The notes below the pieces were generated by a model that saw nothing but the letters and a program-made list of their open reading frames with translations, did not search any database and was not told where the DNA came from. From a virus (Duplodnaviria; Heunggongvirae; Uroviricota; Caudoviricetes), in the IMG/VR virus record IMGVR_UViG_2713896770_000016, positions 1 through 9,136 of that record: a stretch of 9,136 bases of DNA. One strand, 5' to 3'. Shown here in pieces: positions 1-9,136 of this stretch (its first letter is position 1; every line of letters starts with the position of its first letter). The translations under genes and the position numbers were made by a program.

Positions 1-2138
1 TCATCGGTCATAATGGCAGACTGCGCTTCACGTGATTGCTTCAGCCACCATTTAATGGTGTCACGATCAATGACTCCGCCAGCAGTTTCCAGATCGATAG
101 TCTTACTAAATTCCGGTCCCATATCTCCGGTTTGCGGATCGAAAAATATTGCACCTATTGAGATAATCGGGGCATCAGGATTTTTTCCCATGGTTTCAAG
201 GTCGATCATTAGATGGTCACACGTCCTGCTGGTGGATGTGATAACACGATGACCGTTCACCGTAATTAAGGGATCTGCCGTCTCGCCAGTTTCACTATCG
301 CTGGCGTGATCCTGAGCGCTGCCAGCATTCTCCTTGTGTGGATGTTCAGCGCCTTCCATTTTCTCCGAATCGTCTTCCTGAACTTCAACCTGGTTCTTGT
401 CATCGAATGTTTCCTGGTATGTTGCGTCGCCCATCACCGCACCACAATCAGGGCAGTTGCCACCGCCGGTCTGACCGCAGGCGGTGCAGACTTTTTCCAC
501 TTCCTGTTGCGCCACTGGTTCAGGCTGTTTCGTTTCTGGCTCGTTTTGTAACGCATTTGGGCTGTTTTGTTCCGCTTTCTGGTCGTTCTGTTCCGTTTCT
601 TGCTGGTTCTGGTTCACAGAATCGCGGGTTTCAATCCCCTTCACCCATTTCGGATCATTCGGGTCGCTAATCCCTGCAACAAATTCACCACGTGATGCGG
701 CGAGCAACTGATTGGCGTCAGGCTGGCTGATATTGGCTGCCTGCATAATTTTGTTTACTTCGTCAGCGGTAACTTTTACCGGTTCTGGCTGTGCGGTCGT
801 GTCAGATGCACCAGTATTTTGTTGTGAACCTGAGTATGTACTGTTTTTGCGGGCGAAATATTCTTCTTTCGTGATTTCAGTAGCCCCGGCAGCCAGCGCC
901 TTATCCAGACCAGAAAGTTTGTTTGCGCGACCGTATTTTTCGCCATCCTTGTCGGTGAAGAGGAAGTAGAACGGCCCCTCACGCTCTACAGATGGTTCGA
1001 CTTCCACTTTGCATTCGGTTTTTTCGTTGTCCGGAATTGCCGTTTCCACTGCATCAGTTTCTGGTACTGGCGACGAGAGAGTATCAGTTGCGCTCTGATT
1101 TGTTCCTTCATCTTCAAACACGCCCTTTGTAGTCAGGTATTCAGTAATGTATTTGTTCAGTGCCACAGGATCTTTGTGAATGTCGATCGGACGTTCACGG
1201 ACAAGGCCAAAAATAGTCTGGCGGTCGTAGCGAAGGGCATCAGGCTGTTTGCGCATCGATGCCGAGATACGCTTCCAGTCTTCGCGGTCGTTGTCGATAA
1301 CTTCATTTTTTGCCCAGCGATGGATGCTGCCGTCAATGTTTCCGGCATCCACATCACCAGGCCAGAGAGCGTAGGCCAGTTCGTCATCCAGTGTTTTCCA
1401 TGTCTGCTTATATTCGCGACGAATGACTGCAGTGACAGGGGGGATTTTTTCTGCTGAGTTTTCAGTGTGCTGTCGGTGGACTCTGGCGCGGGCGAGATCA
1501 ACAACAGACGTGTATTTTCCGGTTTCCTTGCGTTCACCTTCGCGACGTTTTTTCCAGATGCGCATTTCTGCCTGAATTTCGGGCCATTTGGCACCAGGCT
1601 TACATTTATGCTTAACCCACCCGATGGCATGCAGCTTAAGCTCCGGATACATGGCGTTAACTTCTGGCATTTTCATCAACGCTTCAACGATATGTCCGTC
1701 GAATGTTGCCATGTCTTCCTGCAACAATTCCTGCGCGCTAATCACCATATCAACGGTGATGTTTTCACATGTGTCGAACTTAACCATGACAGCGTTCTGT
1801 ACTTCAAGGGACAGTTTGTCAAAATTGACGTTCATCGGTTCGGATTCTGGTTCGACCGGAATAAAGGAAGCGGATTCCTCATCCCAGCGGTTTTCCTGCA
1901 TATATTCGGTATCCCAGGAGTCGATAGCAGGGCGGGGCATGCCGGGTTTATCCTCGCAGATAAGAAATTTATAAGCGCAGTCCTGAGCAGCCGGATATTG
2001 CTCCAGGAATTGCCAGGTAAATTTGGCACGGGCGCGGCGTTCGTCGCCAGCTTCAATGGCAGTGGCTACAGCAACTGCACCTTCTTCCTTTATTGCCTGT
2101 TCGTCCGGAATGGCGGCGCAAATAAAGACTTTACTCAT
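1..2138 (-). CDS. recE: RecE-like exodeoxyribonuclease VIII family protein, N-terminal ~712 codons; 3' end runs off the left edge of the window
   Basis: Minus-strand frame opens at ATG 2138-2136 (MSKVFICAAIPDE...) and stayed open in the stretches hand-checked (1-300, 1440-1500, 2100-2138). It is absent from the ORF track, consistent with having no in-window stop. The plus strand over the same span holds only short, mutually tiling shadow ORFs. GAGG lies about 10 nt upstream of the ATG. An internal segment ...LLAASRGEFVAGISDPNDPKWVKGIETRD... resembles what I recall of Rac RecE. No search was run. Confidence 0.7.
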   Translation of the reverse strand, partial: MSKVFICAAIPDEQAIKEEGAVAVATAIEAGDERRARAKFTWQFLEQYPAAQDCAYKFLICEDKPGMPRPAIDSWDTEYMQENRWDEESASFIPVEPESEPMNVNFDKLSLEVQNAVMVKFDTCENITVDMVISAQELLQEDMATFDGHIVEALMKMPEVNAMYPELKLHAIGWVKHKCKPGAKWPEIQAEMRIWKKRREGERKETGKYTSVVDLARARVHRQHTENSAEKIPPVTAVIRREYKQTWKTLDDELAYALWPGDVDAGNIDGSIHRWAKNEVIDNDREDWKRISASMRKQPDALRYDRQTIFGLVRERPIDIHKDPVALNKYITEYLTTKGVFEDEGTNQSATDTLSSPVPETDAVETAIPDNEKTECKVEVEPSVEREGPFYFLFTDKDGEKYGRANKLSGLDKALAAGATEITKEEYFARKNSTYSGSQQNTGASDTTAQPEPVKVTADEVNKIMQAANISQPDANQLLAASRGEFVAGISDPNDPKWVKGIETRDSVNQNQQETEQNDQKAEQNSPNALQNEPETKQPEPVAQQEVEKVCTACGQTGGGNCPDCGAVMGDATYQETFDDKNQVEVQEDDSEKMEGAEHPHKENAGSAQDHASDSETGETADPLITVNGHRVITSTSRTCDHLMIDLETMGKNPDAPIISIGAIFFDPQTGDMGPEFSKTIDLETAGGVIDRDTIKWWLKQSREAQSAIMTD

Positions 2139-2261
2139 TTTGTTTTAACCTCATGACAGATTTAAGGATGAACAAATCCCTGCCATTGCTGGCATATAAG
2201 AATCAAATCTGATGTATTCATTAAGCTGAATGTCGTATTGTGGCAGTTATTTTATTACTGC

Positions 2262-2483
2262 TCACCATGACTCTGCTTTTACAGGTAAACCATCACGACC
2301 AAGGAAGACTTTAATCATGGTTTCCTTAATACAGTGTTGTGTGGAAAAATCACGAATATAGAGCCGTTGTTTTTTAATGTTGTTTACCGAAGCAATATAT
2401 GTTCTTCCTTTATGAATAACATAATCACCGGGAGTCACGCACTGACGAGGAATCTCATCAGTTCCGAAGTGATGAGCAATCAT
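2262..2483 (-). CDS. kilR: KilR-like small protein (73 aa), putative cell-division inhibitor
   Basis: Track ORF 2262..2495 (77 aa). The internal ATG at 2483 is preferred because GGAG sits 6 nt upstream of it, whereas the 2495 ATG has no SD. The product [22 protein letters not shown]... is 73 aa, the length of Rac KilR, and lies immediately upstream of recE-like in the same orientation. The name rests on recalled similarity, not alignment. Confidence 0.5.
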
Positions 2484-2657
2484 AATTATCTCCATTTTTA
2501 CAAATGAACTTTGTTGATGCGGTGCCTGGTGCCTCCAGGTGACGTTAACCAGTTAACAATTAACGCCGGATACAGAGAACCCACCCATAACACTGTTTTT
2601 GGTTTTAACTGTTCCGCGTGCGCTCAGCCGCATTCACCGCATCACAAAACTCACTTT

Positions 2658-2715
2658 AAAAAGGGCGGCAGACCAGTCACGGAGTAAAACTGATACCGCC
2701 AAACGTCACCAGAAA
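2658..2715 (-). ncRNA. dicF: DicF-type sRNA (prophage-encoded, ftsZ-targeting family)
   Basis: Minus strand reads TTTCTGGTGACGTTTGGCGGTATCAGTTTTACTCCGTGACTGGTCTGCCGCCC followed by TTTTT. This matches the 53-nt E. coli DicF RNA as I recall it, apart from about 1 nt. It has a GC-rich 3' stem plus U-tail and occupies the same operon position as in Qin (after the ydfC-like gene, about 175 bp before the next gene). Confidence 0.7.
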
Positions 2716-3056
2716 ATTGATAACAGAGGGCGTTGCAGCGGGGTTGTCACTTAAGCGTATGGTCAACCTGACAACCCGGTGTCCTCAACGGGGGAAGGAA
2801 TAACCCCGCCATACTTACCGCCGCGCCATTTCGCGGATTGCCACAACCGGAAGCGCACGGTCGACGAAAATTTAACGACAGGCTATCTATGAACCAGCTA
2901 CCTCGCCGTGCGCTTTCGCGTTATGGTCTGACTTTTCAGGGAAATATCCTTTCAGTAAACTGTCAGTGCCGGATGCTCACCCGTGTCCGGCGCAAGCACT
3001 CCACCTCACCCGTGGAGAACTCCTTAATTACCAACCTTAGCTTCGTTGGTTAGCTA

Positions 3057-3275
3057 TTAACGCGGGTATGTAATCATTCTGGCAATGGTTAATGCCGCTG
3101 CTTTTTCCAGATTGGTGATATCCTGCTCCAGAGAGGACAGATTTTCAGCCTGCTTAGCCCTGACTTCATTAGCCCATTTCAGATCCTGCGCTGCATTAAT
3201 TTTCTGGTGCATCCACTCATAAAGTTCATCATTGGTATAGTCTGGCGCGATGATGACGGGTTCTCGTTTCTGCAT
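3057..3275 (-). CDS. YdfC-like small prophage protein (72 aa), function unknown
   Basis: Track ORF of 72 aa with GAGG 5 nt upstream of the ATG at 3275. Its size and position (third small gene after the repressor, before dicF) match ydfC of the Qin dicB operon. The sequence looks coiled-coil-like. Identity is inferred from context and length only. Confidence 0.5.
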   Translation of the reverse strand: MQKREPVIIAPDYTNDELYEWMHQKINAAQDLKWANEVRAKQAENLSSLEQDITNLEKAAALTIARMITYPR

Positions 3276-3304
3276 ACTGATTCCTCGCGGTGCTGTTTCG
3301 CTTA

Positions 3305-3433
3305 TCAGCCATTAGATTTTGCCGAACTGGAAAGCACCTGTTTAAATTCGTTGAAGCTGTGAGCTTCTTCGCCTTCGGCAAGGCCTTCGAAGTATTCTTC
3401 GTAAGCCTTTTCCATGATTGTGTCGAAATCCAT
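3305..3433 (-). CDS. YdfB/YdaG-like small prophage protein (42 aa)
   Basis: Hand-translated MDFDTIMEKAYEEYFEGLAEGEEAHSFNEFKQVLSSSAKSNG, with stop TGA at 3307-3305. The ATG at 3433 lies 1 nt after the stop of the upstream gene, suggesting translational coupling. The 42-aa acidic product matches the ydfB/ydaG family in size. The overlapping 69-aa track ORF 3229..3438 in another frame was rejected. Confidence 0.6.
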   Translation of the reverse strand: MDFDTIMEKAYEEYFEGLAEGEEAHSFNEFKQVLSSSAKSNG

Positions 3434-3434
3434 A

Positions 3435-3590
3435 TCACCCACCTGAATTTCTTTCCAGCCAGCGACGCGCTCCAGATTCGGTTTTAAACGTTTTGCTTTT
3501 GGTATACGTCATTGCGGTGAACGTACCGTACTGGTTGGGGAACACGCCACATACCAGAGATTCGCTGTTGCCAAGATCGATAGTATCCAT
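3435..3590 (-). CDS. YdfA/YdaF-like small prophage protein (51 aa)
   Basis: Part of track ORF 3435..3671. The internal ATG at 3590 has GAGG 5 nt upstream and gives MDTIDLGNSESLVCGVFPNQYGTFTAMTYTKSKTFKTESGARRWLERNSGG (51 aa, the size of YdfA/YdaF). A 78-aa version starting at 3671 is an alternative, also with a GAGG upstream. Confidence 0.6.
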   Translation of the reverse strand: MDTIDLGNSESLVCGVFPNQYGTFTAMTYTKSKTFKTESGARRWLERNSGG

Positions 3591-3775
3591 GCTGACCTCA
3601 TTTCCCCTTAACGCCGGGGTAGCGGAACAAAAACCTGCTGCATAGTTATTAAAGTTGAACCCTGCCGTCATGTTCTTACGCCTCGGGCTGGCTACTTAAC
3701 CCCTGACCACTGCCTGGTAACTCGAAGTATTGCCCTGCATTCTGTGGGGCGGGGTGGGTTGGTATGAAAAGAAGG

Positions 3776-3814
3776 ATACCCATAGGTATTTAAAAAGTAA
3801 ATACCCATGGGTAA
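3776..3814. promoter_or_regulatory. Operator pair downstream of the repressor gene (OL-like), probable control region of the leftward early operon
   Basis: Two 14-bp dyads: ATACC-CATA-GGTAT (3776-3789) and ATACC-CATG-GGTAA (3801-3814), centres 25 bp apart. The second contains the perfect 12-bp palindrome TACCCATGGGTA. They share the half-site with the operators at 4295-4347. Confidence 0.5.
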
Positions 3815-3855
3815 ATTTTTGCGGTGTCTTAACTGGTGACTAGTTGTTTGGTGAG

Positions 3856-4275
3856 CTATGATGCGTTTTGTGCTTTCTTTTTACGGATTTCTTCGTAGAT
3901 CATATTGTAATACTGTTTTTTCTCTTCAAGAGTTTTTAATAATTTATCCGCTTCACTTTCTGGCAGTTCGTCTAAGAGATCTAAAAAAATACGTTGTCGT
4001 GGCGTTAGAACCCTTGTTTCATAACTGGAGGCTGTGTTCGTTGATGATGAAACGATACCATCCATCCATCCCCGGGGTAACCCAAAGGACTCTTCGATAA
4101 TCTCCACCATATCATCAGCGATCCGTTTTTTTCCCTTTTTCCCCTCTGGGTACAACATTCTTGATACATAAGAAGGCTCGCGCCCGATCTTTCTGGCCAC
4201 GTTAACCGCTTTACCATCGCATTTCTCATCACGAATTTTGATGAGTTGCTGTCGTCTAAATTCATATTTGTCCAT
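3856..4275 (-). CDS. Prophage repressor, DicA/RacR-like HTH protein (139 aa)
   Basis: Track ORF. The N-terminal region has an HTH-like segment GKAVNVARKIGREPSYVSRML. The C-terminal LTPRQRIFLDLLDELPESEADKLL resembles the DicA C-terminus as recalled. It is divergent from a cro-like gene and flanked by palindromic operators. No SD precedes the ATG, so the mRNA may be leaderless. Confidence 0.8.
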   Translation of the reverse strand: MDKYEFRRQQLIKIRDEKCDGKAVNVARKIGREPSYVSRMLYPEGKKGKKRIADDMVEIIEESFGLPRGWMDGIVSSSTNTASSYETRVLTPRQRIFLDLLDELPESEADKLLKTLEEKKQYYNMIYEEIRKKKAQNAS

Positions 4276-4350
4276 AGGTAAATAATAGATGCGATTACCG
4301 CAAGGTAAACAACCTGTGGGTATTGACTTTTGTTTACCTGTGGGTATTCT
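4268..4350. promoter_or_regulatory. Divergent promoter/operator region (OR-like) between the repressor and cro-like genes
   Basis: Operators TTACC-GCAA-GGTAA (4295-4308), cAACC-TGTG-GGTAT (4310-4323) and TTACC-TGTG-GGTAT (4334-4347), plus a degenerate copy over the repressor start (4268-4281). Rightward promoter candidate: -35 TTGACT 4323-4328, 16-bp spacer, -10 TATTCT 4345-4350. Leftward candidate: -35 TTTACC (complement of 4304-4309), 16-bp spacer, -10 TATTAT (complement of 4282-4287), ending about 6 nt before the repressor ATG. Confidence 0.5.
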
Positions 4351-4375
4351 TTGCTGTGTTTACTAAGGAGTAGCT

Positions 4376-4657
4376 ATGGAAGAATTAAGAATATTTCTCA
4401 ATTCTCTTTCGTCAGATGAACAGCGTATGTTTGCATGCGAGTGTGGTACCAGCATCGGTTATCTAAGAAAGGCATTGAGTAAAGGTCAAGTGTTAGGGGC
4501 ATCGTTATGTGTCCTTATTGAGCGAGCCAGTAATGGTGAAGTTACACGTCAGCAACTAAGGCCTTTTGATTGGATGAATATTTGGCCCGAGCTGGAAGAT
4601 ACCAAAACGTTAACACAACCACTTTCTAGGAGCTTGATTCATGAAAATCAAGCATGA
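4376..4657 (+). CDS. Cro-like regulator, YdaS family (93 aa)
   Basis: Track ORF with AAGGAG 5 nt upstream of the ATG. HTH-like segment CGTSIGYLRKALSKGQ...ASLCVLIERASNGEVT. It is the first gene of the rightward operon, divergent from the repressor. Confidence 0.8.
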   Translation: MEELRIFLNSLSSDEQRMFACECGTSIGYLRKALSKGQVLGASLCVLIERASNGEVTRQQLRPFDWMNIWPELEDTKTLTQPLSRSLIHENQA

Positions 4658-5066
4658 ACACATCCGCATGGCGATGAATGCCTGGGCGCGTCCTGATGGC
4701 GAAAAAGTTCCAGCAGCTGGAATAACCCAGGCTTATTTTGAGTTGGGTATGACGTTCCCAGAACTGTATGACGACAGCCATCCGGAAGCCCTGGCTCGCA
4801 ATACCCAGAAAATTTTCCGCTGGGTAGAGAAAGACACCCCTGATGCTGTTGAAAAAATGCAGGCTCTGTTACCGGCGATCGAAAAGGCGATGCCGCCTTT
4901 GCTGGTGGCCCGTATGCGCAGCCACAGTTCTGAATATTACCGTGAGATCGTCGAACGGAGGGATCGGCTGGTGAAGGATGTCGATGATTTTGTTGCGTCA
5001 GCGGTTGTTTTGTATGACCAGATGAATCGCGGCGGCCCGGCAGGGAATGCTGTGGTGATGCACTAA
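4641..5066 (+). CDS. YdaT-family protein (141 aa), CII-like position
   Basis: Track ORF with AGGAG 8 nt upstream. It starts MKIKHEHI like Rac YdaT as recalled and is about the same length. It overlaps the preceding gene by 17 nt. Confidence 0.8.
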   Translation: MKIKHEHIRMAMNAWARPDGEKVPAAGITQAYFELGMTFPELYDDSHPEALARNTQKIFRWVEKDTPDAVEKMQALLPAIEKAMPPLLVARMRSHSSEYYREIVERRDRLVKDVDDFVASAVVLYDQMNRGGPAGNAVVMH

Positions 5067-5088
5067 AAGCACGGTGTTCGGGGGTTTT

Positions 5089-6051
5089 ATGAGCAGCAAG
5101 CTTCATGGTCTTGTCTGGGAAGGGTGCGCCTTCACCGGCATGATCTTATCCAGGGTGGCGGTTATGGCCCGTCTTGCAGACTACAGCAATGACGAGGGCG
5201 TGTCATGGCCTGCCATTGAAACTATCCGGCGTCAGATCGGTGCAAGAAGTGAATCCACAGTGAAATCGGCTATTGCAGAACTGGCGAAAGAGGGCTGGCT
5301 GACGAAGGAAGAGCGTAAGGTCGGTGGGCGTAATGTAAGCAATATCTATCGGCTTAATGTGGAAAAACTCGAAGCAGCTGCGGCGGCGGCGCGTGAGTCA
5401 TATAAACCGAAAAGAAAAATTAGCCCGGCAAAAAATGACCCGTTAACAGTTGACCCGTCAAATATTGACCCCTCAACGGTTGACCCGTCAAATTTTGATG
5501 GATCAACTGTTGATAAAAAACTGCCGATTAGGGGGGCGATGATTGACCCCGATCCGTCAGTATTAAAACCTGATCCGTCAGATAAAAGATCTTCTTGTCC
5601 GGACGCTTCGCAACCGGACCCGCAGACGGCTGAACAGGATTTTTTAACCCGACACCCTGACGCGGTTGTGTTCAGTGCGAAAAAACGCCAGTGGGGAAGT
5701 CAGGAAGATTTGGTGTGCGCACAGTGGATCTGGGGACGAATCGTGAGTCTTTACGAGCAGGCGGCCAGCTATGATGGCGAGATCACTAGACCGAAAGAAC
5801 CCAACTGGACAGCATGGGCCAATGACGTTCGCACAATGCGGATGCTGGATGGCAGAACTCACAGACAAATTTGTGAAATGTTTGGGCGTCTCCAGCGGGA
5901 TTCGTTCTGGGTAAAAAACATCATGAGTCCGGCAAAACTCCGGGAAAAATGGGATGAACTGGTTATCCGCCTGGGGCGTTCGCCTGCGCAGCGTTGCGTG
6001 AATCACATTTCTGAACCGGACACTGAAATACCGCCGGGATTCAGGGGGTGA
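5089..6051 (+). CDS. Phage replication initiation protein (O-like): N-terminal winged-helix DNA-binding domain, repeat linker, DnaT-like C-terminal region
   Basis: Track ORF 5074..6051, which starts at a GTG. I prefer the in-frame ATG at 5089, preceded by a G-run, though the start is uncertain by 5 codons. The N-terminus LSRVAVMARLADYSNDEGVSWPAIETIRRQIGARSESTVKSAIAELAKEGWL is typical of phage replication-protein HTH domains. It sits directly upstream of a DnaC-like gene and carries an iteron array inside the coding sequence. Confidence 0.85.
   Translation: MSSKLHGLVWEGCAFTGMILSRVAVMARLADYSNDEGVSWPAIETIRRQIGARSESTVKSAIAELAKEGWLTKEERKVGGRNVSNIYRLNVEKLEAAAAAARESYKPKRKISPAKNDPLTVDPSNIDPSTVDPSNFDGSTVDKKLPIRGAMIDPDPSVLKPDPSDKRSSCPDASQPDPQTAEQDFLTRHPDAVVFSAKKRQWGSQEDLVCAQWIWGRIVSLYEQAASYDGEITRPKEPNWTAWANDVRTMRMLDGRTHRQICEMFGRLQRDSFWVKNIMSPAKLREKWDELVIRLGRSPAQRCVNHISEPDTEIPPGFRG
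5435..5524 (+). repeat. Iteron array (about six tandem 15-bp repeats, TTGACCCGTCAAAT-like) inside the initiator gene; putative replication origin
   Basis: Direct repeats at about 5435, 5450, 5465, 5480, 5495 and 5510, each with an internal dyad TTGAC-cc-GTCAA, followed by an A-rich tract (5513-5520). Two further related copies (GATCCGTCAG) lie at 5551-5560 and 5572-5581. In the protein they encode a DPSxx pentapeptide-repeat linker. Confidence 0.6.
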
Positions 6052-6057
6052 CGTGTC

Positions 6058-6804
6058 ATGAAAAACATTGCGGCAGTTGGGGTTCTTGAACGTATTCGCA
6101 GACTTGCACCACAGGGGTCGGTTCCACCGTACCGGACGGTGGAGGAGTGGCGGGAATGGCAACTTGCTGAAGGACGAAAACGCAGCGAGGAGATTAACCG
6201 CCAGAATCGCCAGTTGCGGGTGGAAAAAATCCTGAATCGTTCGGGCATCCAGCCTCTGCACAGCAAATGCTCGTTTGCAAATTATCAGGTGCAGAACGAC
6301 GGGCAAAAATACGCGCTGAGCCAGGCCAAATCCATAGCTGACGAACTGATGACCGGGTGCACGAATTTTGTGTTCAGTGGTAAAACCGGCACCGGGAAAA
6401 ATCACCTTGCAGCGGCGATGGGCAACCGGCTGATGGTGAAGGGGCGCAGCGTGATTATCGTCACCGTGTCTGACGTCATGAGCGTGTTGCATGACAGCTA
6501 CGACAACGGCAAATCCGGGGAAAAATTTTTACAGGAGCTTTGCGGGGTTGATTTGCTGGTCCTGGATGAAATAGGCGTTCAGCGGGAGACGAAAAACGAG
6601 CAGGTGGTATTGCACCAGATAATTGATCGCCGGACAGCATCACTGTGCAGTGTCGGGATGTTAACAAACCTGAATCATGCCGCAATGAGTACGCTTCTTG
6701 GTGAGAGGATTATGGACCGCATGACCATGAACGGTGGTCGATGGGTGACGTTTAACTGGGATAGCTGGCGTCCAAATGTCAGCAATATGAGGGTTGTGAA
6801 GTAA
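6058..6804 (+). CDS. DnaC-like helicase loader (IstB-type AAA+ ATPase), YdaV-like (248 aa)
   Basis: Track ORF with AGGGGG about 9 nt upstream. Walker A motif FSGKTGTGKNHLAAA and Walker B motif LLVLDEIG. Same length as Rac YdaV as recalled. Confidence 0.9.
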   Translation: MKNIAAVGVLERIRRLAPQGSVPPYRTVEEWREWQLAEGRKRSEEINRQNRQLRVEKILNRSGIQPLHSKCSFANYQVQNDGQKYALSQAKSIADELMTGCTNFVFSGKTGTGKNHLAAAMGNRLMVKGRSVIIVTVSDVMSVLHDSYDNGKSGEKFLQELCGVDLLVLDEIGVQRETKNEQVVLHQIIDRRTASLCSVGMLTNLNHAAMSTLLGERIMDRMTMNGGRWVTFNWDSWRPNVSNMRVVK

Positions 6805-6825
6805 TTTTGTCCGGAGGAAATTTTA

Positions 6826-7596
6826 ATGGAAACCGTATCTGACGCACTGAAAGCACTGAAAAAAGCCTCTTCACATGTGGTGGCAGCTCGCCTTGGAATC
6901 AGTCGTGAAGAGGCTGTCAACGAGCTGTGGGAACTCAAAAGAAAAGGCGTCGTTGATAAAACTGGTCACACCTGGTTTCTGGCTGGCGAAGGTGAATCCC
7001 GGGTAACCGAAGAGCGGCCAGTAAAATCTGAAGCACAGGATATGCTGACCGGGGAGGTCGAACAAAAAGTTACCGCAGACATGATGATTGAGTTTATCGG
7101 TCAGGATGGGGCTAAAACGTGTGAGGAACTGGCGGGTAAGTTCGGTGTCAGTACTCGCAAGGTTGCTTCCACGCTGGCGGTGGTAACCGCAACGGGGCGG
7201 CTGGCACGCGTTAATCAGAACGGTAAATTTCGTTACTGCATGCCGGGCGATAATTTACCAGCAGAGCCGAAAGCCGCGCTGGTAACGGAAAGTGATGGTA
7301 AGGCCTTTCCTCAGCCAGCAGGTGCTGCGTTACCAGTCCGGGAAGCCGCAACACAGGAAGAAATTAAAACAGAAACTGTGGCGGACATTGTGCAGCCGTT
7401 GCCATCGTTTACCGAAACGCAAGCAGATGAGCTGATTTTTCCGTCCCTTCGCAGGGCAAACCTGGCGCTGCGCAGGGCGAAAAGTGATGTTCAGAAGTGG
7501 GAGCGAGTCTGCGCCGCGCTGCGGGAGCTGAACAAGCACCGGGATATTGTTCGACAGATTACTGATTCTTCCCGCCGTGTTGTATCGGAAAAGTGA
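6826..7596 (+). CDS. Hypothetical protein (256 aa) with two winged-helix-like modules
   Basis: Track ORF with GGAGG 8 nt upstream. Internally duplicated 50-60 aa segments (residues about 1-55 and 83-140) of the pattern hydrophobic-x-x-L-x-x-x-G-[IV]-S-x-x-x-[VA]. The C-terminal third is basic and helical. No family was recognised with certainty. Confidence 0.7.
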   Translation: METVSDALKALKKASSHVVAARLGISREEAVNELWELKRKGVVDKTGHTWFLAGEGESRVTEERPVKSEAQDMLTGEVEQKVTADMMIEFIGQDGAKTCEELAGKFGVSTRKVASTLAVVTATGRLARVNQNGKFRYCMPGDNLPAEPKAALVTESDGKAFPQPAGAALPVREAATQEEIKTETVADIVQPLPSFTETQADELIFPSLRRANLALRRAKSDVQKWERVCAALRELNKHRDIVRQITDSSRRVVSEK

Positions 7597-7611
7597 TTGC
7601 CGGAGGCGCTT

Positions 7612-8037
7612 ATGGCAAAAGTATTTACACAAGAAGAGCGGGAAAAAATTAAAGGGCAGGTTGTTGAACTTGTACGTCTGAGCGGTCGCGAGACGTTGCG
7701 GCAACTGGAAGCCAAGACAGGTGCGACAAGATATCTGATGAGTGTTCTCGCCAGAGAGCTGGTTGCCAGTGGCGATGTATACAACTCTGGTTACGGGTTA
7801 TTCCCGTCTGAACAGGCGCGTAAGGACTGGCAAAATGCTCGCAAAAAACTCTCAAGGGCAAAGGTGAAGAAACCTGCAGTGGTTGATCCGGACCTTATCT
7901 GGTCGTTACCAGACGGCGAAATACGCCGCTACGACAGGCGCCTGAATATAATCTGTCGCGAGTGCCGGAAGAGCGAAGCTATGCAGCGTGTACTGGCATT
8001 TTATCAAGGAAATGTTAGGTATTTTAGACGTTACTAG
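7612..8037 (+). CDS. Hypothetical protein (141 aa), N-terminal winged-helix-like module, C-terminal basic region
   Basis: Track ORF 7597..8037 begins at a TTG. I prefer the ATG at 7612, which has GGAGG 5 nt upstream. It starts 16 nt after the stop of the previous gene. The N-terminus resembles the modules of the preceding protein. Confidence 0.7.
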   Translation: MAKVFTQEEREKIKGQVVELVRLSGRETLRQLEAKTGATRYLMSVLARELVASGDVYNSGYGLFPSEQARKDWQNARKKLSRAKVKKPAVVDPDLIWSLPDGEIRRYDRRLNIICRECRKSEAMQRVLAFYQGNVRYFRRY

Positions 8038-8190
8038 ATTAAAGAGCATTAGTTCAGATGTGAATTGACATTTTCATGGCGCAGGGTAGAGCCAGCGTGG
8101 TTGTCCGCTTTGCGTCAAAACCAGATATTACCAGATTTAGACATATATTCCCGATAGCCCTGCTCTGATGCTACACTCTGTGCTATTTTC

Positions 8191-8877
8191 ATGACCCCAA
8201 TAAAAATATTTATGACTATTGCTGATTTCAAACGGCCTAAATTGGAGCTCCCAAACGGGGCAAACAAACTACTACTGCACTCTTGCTGTGCTCCATGTTC
8301 CGGTGAAGTGATGGAGGCGCTTCAGGCCTCGGGAATCGACTACACCATCTTTTTCTACAACCCGAACATTCATCCTCAGAAAGAGTATTTAATTCGTAAG
8401 GATGAAAATATTCGCTTTGCTGAACAACACGGCGTGCCGTTTATCGATGCTGATTACGACACCGACAACTGGTTTGAACGTGCCAAAGGAATGGAATGGG
8501 AGCCTGAGAGGGGGATCCGTTGTACCATGTGTTTTGACATGCGTTTTGAGCGGACAGCGTTGTACGCTGCTGAAAATGGTTTCAGTGTGATCAGCAGTTC
8601 ACTGGGCATTTCACGCTGGAAAAATATGCAGCAGGTTAACGAGTGTGGGCGGCGAGCTGTTGCGCATTATCCGGGTATGGTGTACTGGGATTATAACTGG
8701 CGCAAGCAGGGCGGCTCGTCCCGTATGATTGAAATCAGCAAGCGCGAAAAATTCTATCAGCAGGAATATTGTGGCTGTGTGTATTCTCTGCGCGATACCA
8801 ATCTACACCGCAAATCTCAGGGACGCCCTCTTATCAAAATTGGCCAACTCCACTACGGAAAAGAAGAGAAGGAGTGA
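8191..8877 (+). CDS. QueH-like (DUF208-type) putative Fe-S protein, possible epoxyqueuosine reductase homologue (228 aa)
   Basis: Track ORF. N-terminal [12 protein letters not shown] followed by FFYNPNIHP, and later RCTMC and EYCGCVYS cysteine motifs. I recognise this pattern as DUF208/QueH, not confirmed by search. It follows a 153-bp intergenic region with extended -10-like TGcTACACT (8169-8177) and TGcTATTTT (8181-8189). No SD precedes the ATG. Confidence 0.75.
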
Positions 8878-9136
8878 TTTTATGGATCACCTTTCTGATT
8901 GATTTCATATTGGCGAGGTGACGTGAGTTAAGTAGAATGGCTGCGGGTGCTTGAGGCTATCTGTCTCAGGCATGAACACTGAAAGGCAGATAGAGAAAAG
9001 CCCCAGTTAACATTTCGCGTCCTGCAAGACGCTTAACATTAATCTGAGGCCCAATCTATGTCTCACAAATGTAGGTTAGCCTCTTACGTGCCGAAAGGCA
9101 AGGGGAAGCAGGCTATTGTTAACACCAAGCTGTAAT

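Follow-up and report, generated by a model that had tools for sequence, protein, structure and literature searches.

The stretch of DNA described here (the window, 9,136 nucleotides) covers positions 1 to 9,136 of the IMG/VR virus record IMGVR_UViG_2713896770_000016 and represents a Rac-like lambdoid prophage of Escherichia coli. Based on its anatomy and its conservation, the region 4268-4350 is very probably the right operator (OR) of a lambda-type lysis/lysogeny switch, in which dyad sites are interleaved with two divergent promoters between a repressor gene and a cro-like gene. The arrangement of the sites, their conservation and the co-variation of repressor and operator are established here; repressor binding, activation, looping, the transcription starts and competition by Cro are what we infer. 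Elements of this kind are well known, whereas the repressor domain and the operator sequence were not found described. New are this particular repressor domain with its operator consensus, a left operator (OL) of two sites and a conserved spacing of 15 bp between OR2 and OR3.

Anatomy of the probable right operator

The start codons of the repressor gene (4275, minus strand) and the divergent cro-like gene (4376, plus strand) are separated by a spacer of 100 bp. The following features were located in this spacer and over the repressor start codon, where PR denotes the rightward promoter and PRM the promoter for repressor maintenance:

4334-4347, no strand: OR1, TTACCTGTGGGTAT, matching at 9 of 10 half-site positions and overlapping the PR -10 by 3 nt
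4310-4323, no strand: OR2, CAACCTGTGGGTAT, with a perfect ACC-N4-GGT core and an outer left half matching at 3 of 5 positions, abutting the PR -35
4295-4308, no strand: OR3, TTACCGCAAGGTAA, a perfect 5+5 dyad over the PRM -35 and spacer (-33 to -20)
4268-4281, no strand: degenerate copy over the repressor ATG, TTGTCCATAGGTAA, with two mismatches and a core of GTC instead of ACC
4282-4309, minus strand: PRM-like promoter, TTTACC (4309-4304)-N16-TATTAT (4287-4282), predicted start at 4275, the A of the repressor ATG
4323-4350, plus strand: PR-like promoter, TTGACT (4323-4328)-N16-TATTCT (4345-4350), predicted start near 4357

A promoter scan of positions 3700-4800 returned exactly two sigma-70-like matches, PR and PRM, both interleaved with the dyads. 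These are the two overlapping divergent promoters that had been named in a preliminary description of the region. OR2 also adjoins the PRM -35 on its upstream side, and its centre lies 41.5 bp from the predicted PRM start. With up to one mismatch, WWACCNNNNGGTWW sites occur seven times in the window compared to 2.5 expected, and five of the seven fall within two clusters. Three or more such sites within 60 bp were obtained in one of 3000 first-order Markov simulations; the clustering is not random. An Rfam search found no RNA family within 4268-4350.

The preliminary description had spoken of three full dyads. All three are found where it had placed them; since the outer half of 4310-4323 is poor, the wording was slightly generous for this site. 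It had also drawn a larger 9-bp dyad across 4304-4338. The inverted repeat is present (GGTAAACAA at 4304-4312 and TTGTTTACC at 4330-4338), but the 9-bp extension is not conserved in the family, in which the flanks outside the 14-bp sites carry 0.0-0.5 bits, and the larger dyad was rejected as a separate element. It is best read as OR3 and OR1 facing each other in mirrored orientation. The degenerate copy over the ATG exists as described, but conservation is lacking, and of its three core bases, invariant otherwise, two are altered.

Conservation of the operators in related loci

One genome per species was scanned with an alignment of the N-terminal domain of the repressor. This yielded 40 loci from gamma- and beta-proteobacteria, comprising Enterobacterales, Aeromonas, Neisseria, Paraburkholderia, Massilia, Ferrovum, Xanthomonas, Stenotrophomonas and others. 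The operator alignment was based on 35 distinct loci and the comparison of -10 hexamers on 42.

In about three quarters of the loci, dyads were found at -73/-74, -48/-49 and -33/-34 from the repressor ATG. Taken separately, an equivalent of OR1 is present at -72 to -76 in 34 of the 35 distinct aligned loci (at -86 in locus L106), of OR2 at -48/-49 in 32 loci and of OR3 at -33/-34 in 35 loci. The spacing between OR2 and OR3 is 15 bp in all 32 loci compared, while OR1 and OR2 are 24-25 bp apart in 31 of 32 (25 bp in 27 loci, 24 bp in four; the window has 24 bp).

The consensus of the operators is TTACC-N4-GGTAA, with near-invariant TACC and GGTA and variable centres. The ACC core is invariant in OR1 (35/35) and OR2 (32/32) and present in 31 of 35 OR3 equivalents. 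Even the asymmetry of the OR2 half-sites (GGTTA) is conserved in the family. The N4 centres of OR1 and OR2 show a Y-R-Y-R pattern (Y, pyrimidine; R, purine), whereas the centre of OR3 is unconstrained. Of the PR hexamers, the -35 has a near-invariant TTGA (31-32 of 32 loci) embedded in the flank of OR2, and the -10, embedded in the flank of OR1, is conserved at its first three and last positions (TAAAnT in the family, TATTCT in the window). Dyad positions, promoter hexamers and the gap of 6-7 nt in front of the repressor ATG are kept across the 40 diverged loci and in phage mEp043, which supports the OR-like reading put forward in the preliminary description.

A second scan with the N-terminal domain, this time of IMG/VR, yielded 80 loci, all of them E. 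coli copies with 100% identity of the domain. This set was unfit for phylogenetic footprinting and was reused for a polymorphism test. Among the 80 near-identical copies, 17 of 113 spacer positions vary, with 8 of 12 centre positions but only 1 of 30 half-site positions affected (Fisher p = 3e-5). The sole half-site polymorphism, at position 4299, changes TTACC to TTACT in the outer half of OR3. It is found in 20 of the 80 copies (L019, L026, L038, L010 and copies identical to these) and also in loci of Xanthomonas and Arsenophonus.

Recognition helix and operator motif co-vary. At least one TTACC-N4-GGTAA site, and in most cases two or three, was found in every locus encoding a helix of the SYVSRMLY type (some of these helices have one or two substitutions); no such site is present in L105, L120 and L124, the three loci in which the helix is altered. 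Two of the latter, L120 and L124 from Advenella, encode the most diverged homologues (38-42% identity, helices PASISHM and PATISHL) and carry another upstream inverted repeat, e.g. ATACCGC-N8-GCGGTAT, which is consistent with co-evolution of helix and operator.

A subgroup of Klebsiella loci (L087, L089, L090 and L092) was found to have OR2 replaced by an unrelated AT-rich stretch, TTTGCTATATTTTA, together with a different -35, TAGATA, in the leftward promoter. In this subgroup, OR1 and OR3 are still present at their customary offsets, except for L087, in which OR1 only was found and no OR3 was called.

Start of the repressor mRNA

In the window, 6 nt separate the end of the leftward -10 (4282) from the A of the repressor ATG (4275). 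No Shine-Dalgarno (SD) motif of the AGGA, GGAG or GAGG type was found within 20 nt upstream of this ATG, and the open reading frame has no in-frame start codon upstream of 4275. The measured gap and the lack of a purine-rich SD agree with what had been noted before. When the 42 loci were compared, the best -10-like hexamer was found to end 6-7 nt before the repressor ATG in 34 of them. The hexamer itself differs by locus (TATTAT, TAGAAT, TAAAAT, TATGAT, GAAAAT and others), and TTTACC, the left half of OR3, is located 16-18 nt upstream of it in most loci. In these 42 loci no SD was observed in the usual position; a few have short purine runs at least 12 nt upstream of the ATG.

These features suggest that the maintenance mRNA from PRM probably starts at the A of the repressor AUG and has no leader. 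In lambda, PRM is arranged as TAGATT-TAACGT-ATG. The racR gene of E. coli K-12 has the same geometry (GAATAT-6 nt-ATG); its leaderless start was mapped by primer extension, and the strongest racR promoter gives a leaderless transcript (PMC9638921). PaaR2 of prophage CP-933P is leaderless according to 5' RACE (rapid amplification of cDNA ends) and N-terminal sequencing (PMC8630535). The probably leaderless repressor mRNA of the preliminary description fits both the conserved geometry of -10, gap and ATG and the leaderless mRNAs of the sister systems. A leaderless repressor would make this the third, independent immunity type of the kind in the Rac/CP-933P group, and the layout seems to belong to the conserved design of these switches instead of being peculiar to lambda.

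A lambda-like system should also produce a repressor transcript with a long leader from a promoter that depends on YdaT/CII. As such a leadered establishment transcript is expected, a leadered species alone would be compatible with a leaderless PRM transcript. A literature search found no data on 5' ends for this element.

In seven beta-proteobacterial and xanthomonad loci (L101, L114, L116, L119 and L121-L123), the cro-like start was observed about 6 nt past the PR -10, again with no SD. Both divergent genes may be leaderless in these loci.

A probable second operator pair beyond the repressor gene

Two further sites and a promoter-like sequence (PL, the leftward promoter), which were not part of the preliminary description, were found on the other side of the repressor gene:

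3776-3789, no strand: OL1, ATACCCATAGGTAT, a perfect dyad overlapping the PL -10
3801-3814, no strand: OL2, ATACCCATGGGTAA, abutting the PL -35
3773-3801, minus strand: PL-like promoter, TTTACT (3801-3796)-N17-TATCCT (3778-3773)

The layout of the PL-like promoter and its two sites corresponds to that of PR with OR2 and OR1. The promoter has a predicted start near 3766 and is directed leftward into the region of DUF1391, DicF and dicB. OL1 and OL2 are located 42-80 bp beyond the stop codon of the repressor gene. A pair of OL type, 25-26 bp apart and 3' of the repressor gene, is conserved in 25 distinct loci, together with the promoter layout GGTA[TTGACa]...GGTA[TAnnnT]. Besides OR, this pair provides the sole perfect-core matches in these loci of about 4 kb. 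The segment 3773-3814 is the analogue of OL1/OL2 and PL, with a predicted function.

On the minus strand (3777-3813) both OL dyads form an RNA hairpin of 16 bp (-22.2 kcal/mol, z = -5.95), which is followed by UCCUUCUUUUC and lies 42 nt after the repressor stop codon. This hairpin might also act as an intrinsic terminator of transcription from PRM.

The repressor is a chimeric protein

The repressor has a length of 139 amino acids (aa). Residues 1-70 correspond to a lambda-repressor-like helix-turn-helix (HTH) domain, residues 76-87 to a disordered linker and residues 92-137 to a helical hairpin of the DicA type. The same order of a helical HTH domain (lambda/434/P22 type), linker and helical hairpin was obtained with an AlphaFold2 model (predicted local distance difference test, pLDDT, 86). 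The five-helix, lambda-repressor-like DNA-binding domain of the LexA/CI S24 family is present. An S24 autopeptidase domain (PF00717) was not found; the 139-aa protein has no Pfam match and ends in the hairpin, whereas relatives sharing its N-terminal domain do carry PF00717. Since the S24 domain is lacking, induction by RecA-mediated autocleavage is not expected. Structural resemblance to Rep of the Salmonella phage SPC32H suggests control by an antirepressor instead, by analogy with that protein; no antirepressor gene was identified in the window.

Searches of Pfam, NCBIfam and PDB sequences with the repressor and the domain alignment gave no significant family for the DNA-binding domain, and nothing relevant on this protein was found in the literature. 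Residues 1-73 share 64-82% identity with the N-termini of CI proteins of the S24/LexA type, 220-242 aa in length, from Salmonella, Edwardsiella, Yersinia, Klebsiella and Pantoea. Residues 86-139, in turn, resemble the C-termini of DicA and of CI of phage Tritos. NCBIfam model PRK09706 matches residues 86-136 with an E value of 1.9e-5, which is below the cut-off for the whole protein, and residues 89-134 are 33% identical to K-12 DicA (46 aa, E 2e-7). The repressor is a chimera of these N-terminal and C-terminal modules. In its homologues the same N-terminal domain is fused to at least five C-terminal modules, namely three S24 peptidase types, the DicA-type hairpin and other short tails (P0031-P0117).

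The N-terminus MDKYE is kept in all homologues. Several gene calls for homologues carry spurious N-terminal extensions upstream of it, as expected for a leaderless gene without SD. Frameshifted alleles of the repressor occur in some E. coli genomes (P0010, P0016 and P0019; positions 4005-4265 of the window, minus strand, in an alternative frame). These alleles start in an overlapping frame (MNLDDSNSS...) and return to that of the repressor near residue 50, a sign that the repressor is decaying in some members of the population.

Proposed mechanism and alternative explanations

In the proposed mechanism, dimers of the 139-aa repressor would read TTACC-N4-GGTAA through the invariant helix SYVSRMLY. 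Repressor at OR1, over part of the PR -10, and at OR2, next to the PR -35 and 24 bp away, should block PR, the predicted driver of the replication genes and of ydaS (cro-like) and ydaT (CII-like). In lambda, CI activates transcription from PRM when bound about 42 bp upstream of its start, and a dimer at OR2, 41.5 bp from the predicted start, would be in the position for activating PRM. At high concentrations of repressor, occupation of OR3, a site spanning the PRM -35 and spacer, would stop further repressor synthesis. OL1 and OL2 would repress the leftward PL and may loop to OR, at a distance of about 525 bp. Presumably, the Cro-like protein is a competitor for these sites.

Several points weigh against this interpretation. 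The evidence for the element itself comes from sequence comparison, and the related loci share ancestry, so that counts across loci are not counts of independent events. OR2 and OR3 are 15 bp apart from centre to centre (about 1.4 helical turns) compared to 23-24 bp in lambda, so lambda-style occupancy rules may not transfer, and activation of PRM from OR2 is deduced from position only. PL scores 8/12 against the consensus, which is under the threshold of the scanner, and was therefore not called. On sequence grounds, each of the sites could belong to the repressor or to Cro. Finally, the prophage belongs to the cryptic Rac type, and some strains have frameshifted alleles; decay of the switch in part of the population is possible.

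It is conceivable that the dyads are operators only or mainly of the Cro-like YdaS, with the 139-aa protein binding elsewhere or acting differently. The Cro homologues accompany the dyads just as consistently as the repressor domain does, so that co-occurrence alone is no means of telling the two proteins apart. Nevertheless, the motif is lost exactly where the recognition helix of the repressor changes, loci with this repressor domain retain the dyads whichever of at least five C-terminal partners is present, and the operator region is common to both proteins in lambda, CP-933P and Rac (PMC8630535, PMC9638921). We consider this explanation very improbable. A similarly small probability is assigned to the view that the region is the decaying relic of a once working switch that no longer regulates in a cryptic prophage. 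Prophages of the Rac type are mostly defective, frameshifted repressor genes occur in some E. coli copies (P0010, P0016, P0019) and the half-site change in OR3 affects 20 of 80 copies, all of which would fit such decay. However, across the same 80 copies half-sites are almost invariant (1/30) compared to the freely varying N4 centres (8/12), the intact 139-aa allele is dominant (47/80 copies), and the analogous repressor of K-12 Rac is essential, as it silences the toxic ydaS/ydaT (PMC5700373).

Two further alternatives concern the start of the repressor gene. The repressor might be translated mainly from leadered upstream transcripts, for example from a YdaT/CII-dependent promoter for repressor establishment (PRE) in or near ydaS, and the -10 next to the ATG would then not be a working start. 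A perfect YdaT site at 4634-4651, the repressor operon driven by a YdaT-controlled PRE promoter in CP-933P (PMC9986795, PMC8630535) and the expectation of establishment transcripts with a leader in any lambda-like system speak for it. This explanation is nonetheless improbable: in 34 of 42 diverged loci the -10 keeps a distance of 6-7 nt to the ATG, with changes in the bases around it, there is no SD to serve a leadered mRNA, and leaderless starts were mapped in both sister systems (PMC9638921, PMC8630535). In addition, both modes can coexist. Somewhat less remote, but still unlikely, is that the degenerate copy at 4268-4281 acts as a functional fourth, autorepressing operator, comparable to O3 in K-12 Rac. 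Its half-site GGTAA at 4277-4281 is perfect, it contains a 10-nt repeat of the OR3 flank, and an operator over the racR ATG was footprinted in K-12 Rac (PMC9638921). Its other half, however, reads GTC, compared to ACC in OR1 (35/35), OR2 (32/32) and OR3 (31/35); this half is dictated by the Met-Asp-Lys codons, and the upstream half-site is absent in mEp043 and 40 related loci. The copy is probably not a full operator; given the real site over the racR ATG in K-12 Rac, weak binding to it is conceivable.

Comparison with known switches

The element resembles lambda in its divergent repressor and cro genes, in three dyad operators interleaved with two back-to-back promoters, and in a weak PRM that is probably activator-dependent, with OR2 centred about 42 bp upstream of its start. 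The order of -10, 6 nt and ATG and the presence of distal operators at a PL promoter are also shared. The predicted start sites are about 82 bp apart, as are those of PR and PRM in lambda. Differences are found in the operator length (14 bp, 17 bp in lambda), in the OR2-OR3 distance (15 bp, 23 bp in lambda) and in OL, which has two sites at about 525 bp in the window and three sites at 2.4 kb in lambda. Unlike in lambda, the repressor lacks an autocleavage domain of the S24 type, Cro belongs to the YdaS type and YdaT takes the place of CII.

With CP-933P, the prophage shares a YdaT that is about 96% identical (PDB 8bt1). The published YdaT operator TTGATT-N6-AATCAA (PMC9986795) is perfect in the window at the ydaS/ydaT junction (4634-4651). 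Both have a short non-S24 repressor, with a leaderless mRNA shown in CP-933P, as well as OR and OL/PL; tripartite operators and OL/PL of CP-933P were shown experimentally (PMC8630535). In contrast to CP-933P, the GTTTAGTAA operator repeats are absent, with only single matches at chance level in the window, OL/PL follow the repressor gene, paaA2-parE2 toxin-antitoxin genes are lacking and Cro is only distantly related. Identity with the PaaR2 operators was rejected on these repeats, in a comparison that covered operators and gene context.

The Rac prophage of K-12 has the same backbone (intR, xisR, ralR, recET), and its YdaS and YdaT have homologues downstream of PR in the window. Three inverted-repeat operators are located in its racR-ydaS spacer of about 120 bp (PMC9638921). 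The presence of three operators in a short spacer between repressor and ydaS is thus shared, along with the geometry of -10, 6 nt and ATG. The third operator of Rac covers the ATG, whereas OR3 in the window is found at -33 to -20. The repressor was rejected as a homologue of RacR (BLASTP E = 2.3, no meaningful alignment), and the RacR operator (T/A)TAGGC-N3-GCCTA(T/A) has no match in the window with up to two mismatches. As RacR operators and CP-933P repeats are absent and repressor and operators differ, the element is a heteroimmune member of the Rac/CP-933P/lambda class, with a right part of CP-933P type and a different immunity type on the left.

The closest operator relative is that of phage mEp043 (JQ182734), with the same three dyads, spacing, PRM geometry and OL pair. 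Its cI-cro spacer contains TTACCTGCCGGTAA, TAACCTATGGGTAT and TTACCTACAGGTAA, separated by 1 bp and 11 bp, respectively; a gap of 6 nt separates its TTTACC-N16-TAGAAT from the cI ATG, and ATACCTACAGGTAA and ATACCTATAGGTAA are found in the annotated PL region of the phage. The N-terminus of cI is 65% identical to that of the repressor, the recognition helix is identical and the start of Cro is homologous. Unlike the repressor studied here, cI of mEp043 has 228 aa and an S24 peptidase domain (the classic SOS-cleavable type), and the phage has a lambda-type CII, not YdaT. The phage is little studied, and no publication on its operators was found in the literature.

Similarity to DicA of the Qin prophage is confined to the homologous C-terminal hairpin (33% over 46 aa), as the N-terminal HTH domains do not align. 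The hairpin is also homologous to that of CI of phage Tritos, the N-terminal domain of which is different. The DNA-binding domains of DicA, Tritos CI and SPC32H Rep are unrelated in sequence to that of the repressor.

For a protein labelled hypothetical in RefSeq, the analysis provides a function and a predicted DNA target, with the consensus TTACC-N4-GGTAA assigned to a repressor domain that has no Pfam, NCBIfam or PDB relative at the sequence level. It follows as a prediction that carriers of the prophage would be immune to mEp043 and its relatives, and that the switch, unlike that of mEp043, would be unresponsive to RecA-mediated cleavage. The general understanding of phage switches is unchanged by these results.

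As a tentative proposal, which we regard as possible but rather doubtful, the N-terminal domain (MDKYE...REPSYVSRMLYPEGKKGKKRIADDM), the TTACC-N4-GGTAA operators, the Cro gene and the leaderless PRM might constitute one uncurated immunity cassette with an occupancy logic unlike that of lambda, its base-pair geometry being kept across gamma- and beta-proteobacterial prophages. If so, the cassette would have recombined with five or more C-terminal modules, and immunity specificity and mode of induction would be independently exchangeable parts. The spacing of 15 bp would place dimers at OR2 and OR3 on nearly opposite faces of the helix. Together with this spacing, the YRYR centres of OR1, OR2 and OL, compared to the free centre of OR3, would encode such a logic, for example through interference between OR2 and OR3 and tuning of affinity by indirect readout.

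Prophage setting and gene layout

The genes around the right operator are:

3856-4275, minus strand: repressor gene, 139 aa, RefSeq WP_000362153 (RefSeq label 'hypothetical protein')
4376-4657, plus strand: cro-like gene of the YdaS type, 93 aa, YdaS_toxin match below the cut-off, phrog_35 match
4641-5066, plus strand: YdaT/CII-like gene, PF06254 match above its cut-off

The cro-like ATG at 4376 is preceded by a short leader with the SD AAGGAG (4365-4370). Its product scores 25.8 bits with the Pfam family YdaS_toxin (PF15943), below the cut-off of 30, is 54% identical to K-12 YdaS over 28 aa and matches the PDB 'Cro' entries 8c7k and 8co2 at E 1e-10. Homologues with 36-73% identity are divergently encoded in at least 26 related loci. 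The perfect YdaT operator at 4634-4651, TTGATTCATGAAAATCAA, overlaps the ydaS stop codon and the ydaT start codon, which by analogy with CP-933P implies a putative YdaT-controlled promoter of the PRE type.

A 1-kb stretch of the window (3700-4700) is 100% identical in many E. coli chromosomes, including O55:H7 RM12579, O145:H28 and O103. At least 80% of this immunity stretch is present in 822 of 5,426 complete E. coli genomes, among them O55:H7, O145:H28 and O103 pathogens. In RM12579 it is part of a Rac-type prophage with intR, xisR, ralR, recT, recE and dicB on the left side and with ydaT-family, replication and DUF1627/DUF977 genes on the right side.

Two RNA families were matched elsewhere in the window with Rfam, namely the antisense small RNA DicF (2663-2714, minus strand, 74 bits) and the antitoxin RNA sok (8945-9117, plus strand, 116 bits), the latter presumably part of a locus of the hok/sok type.

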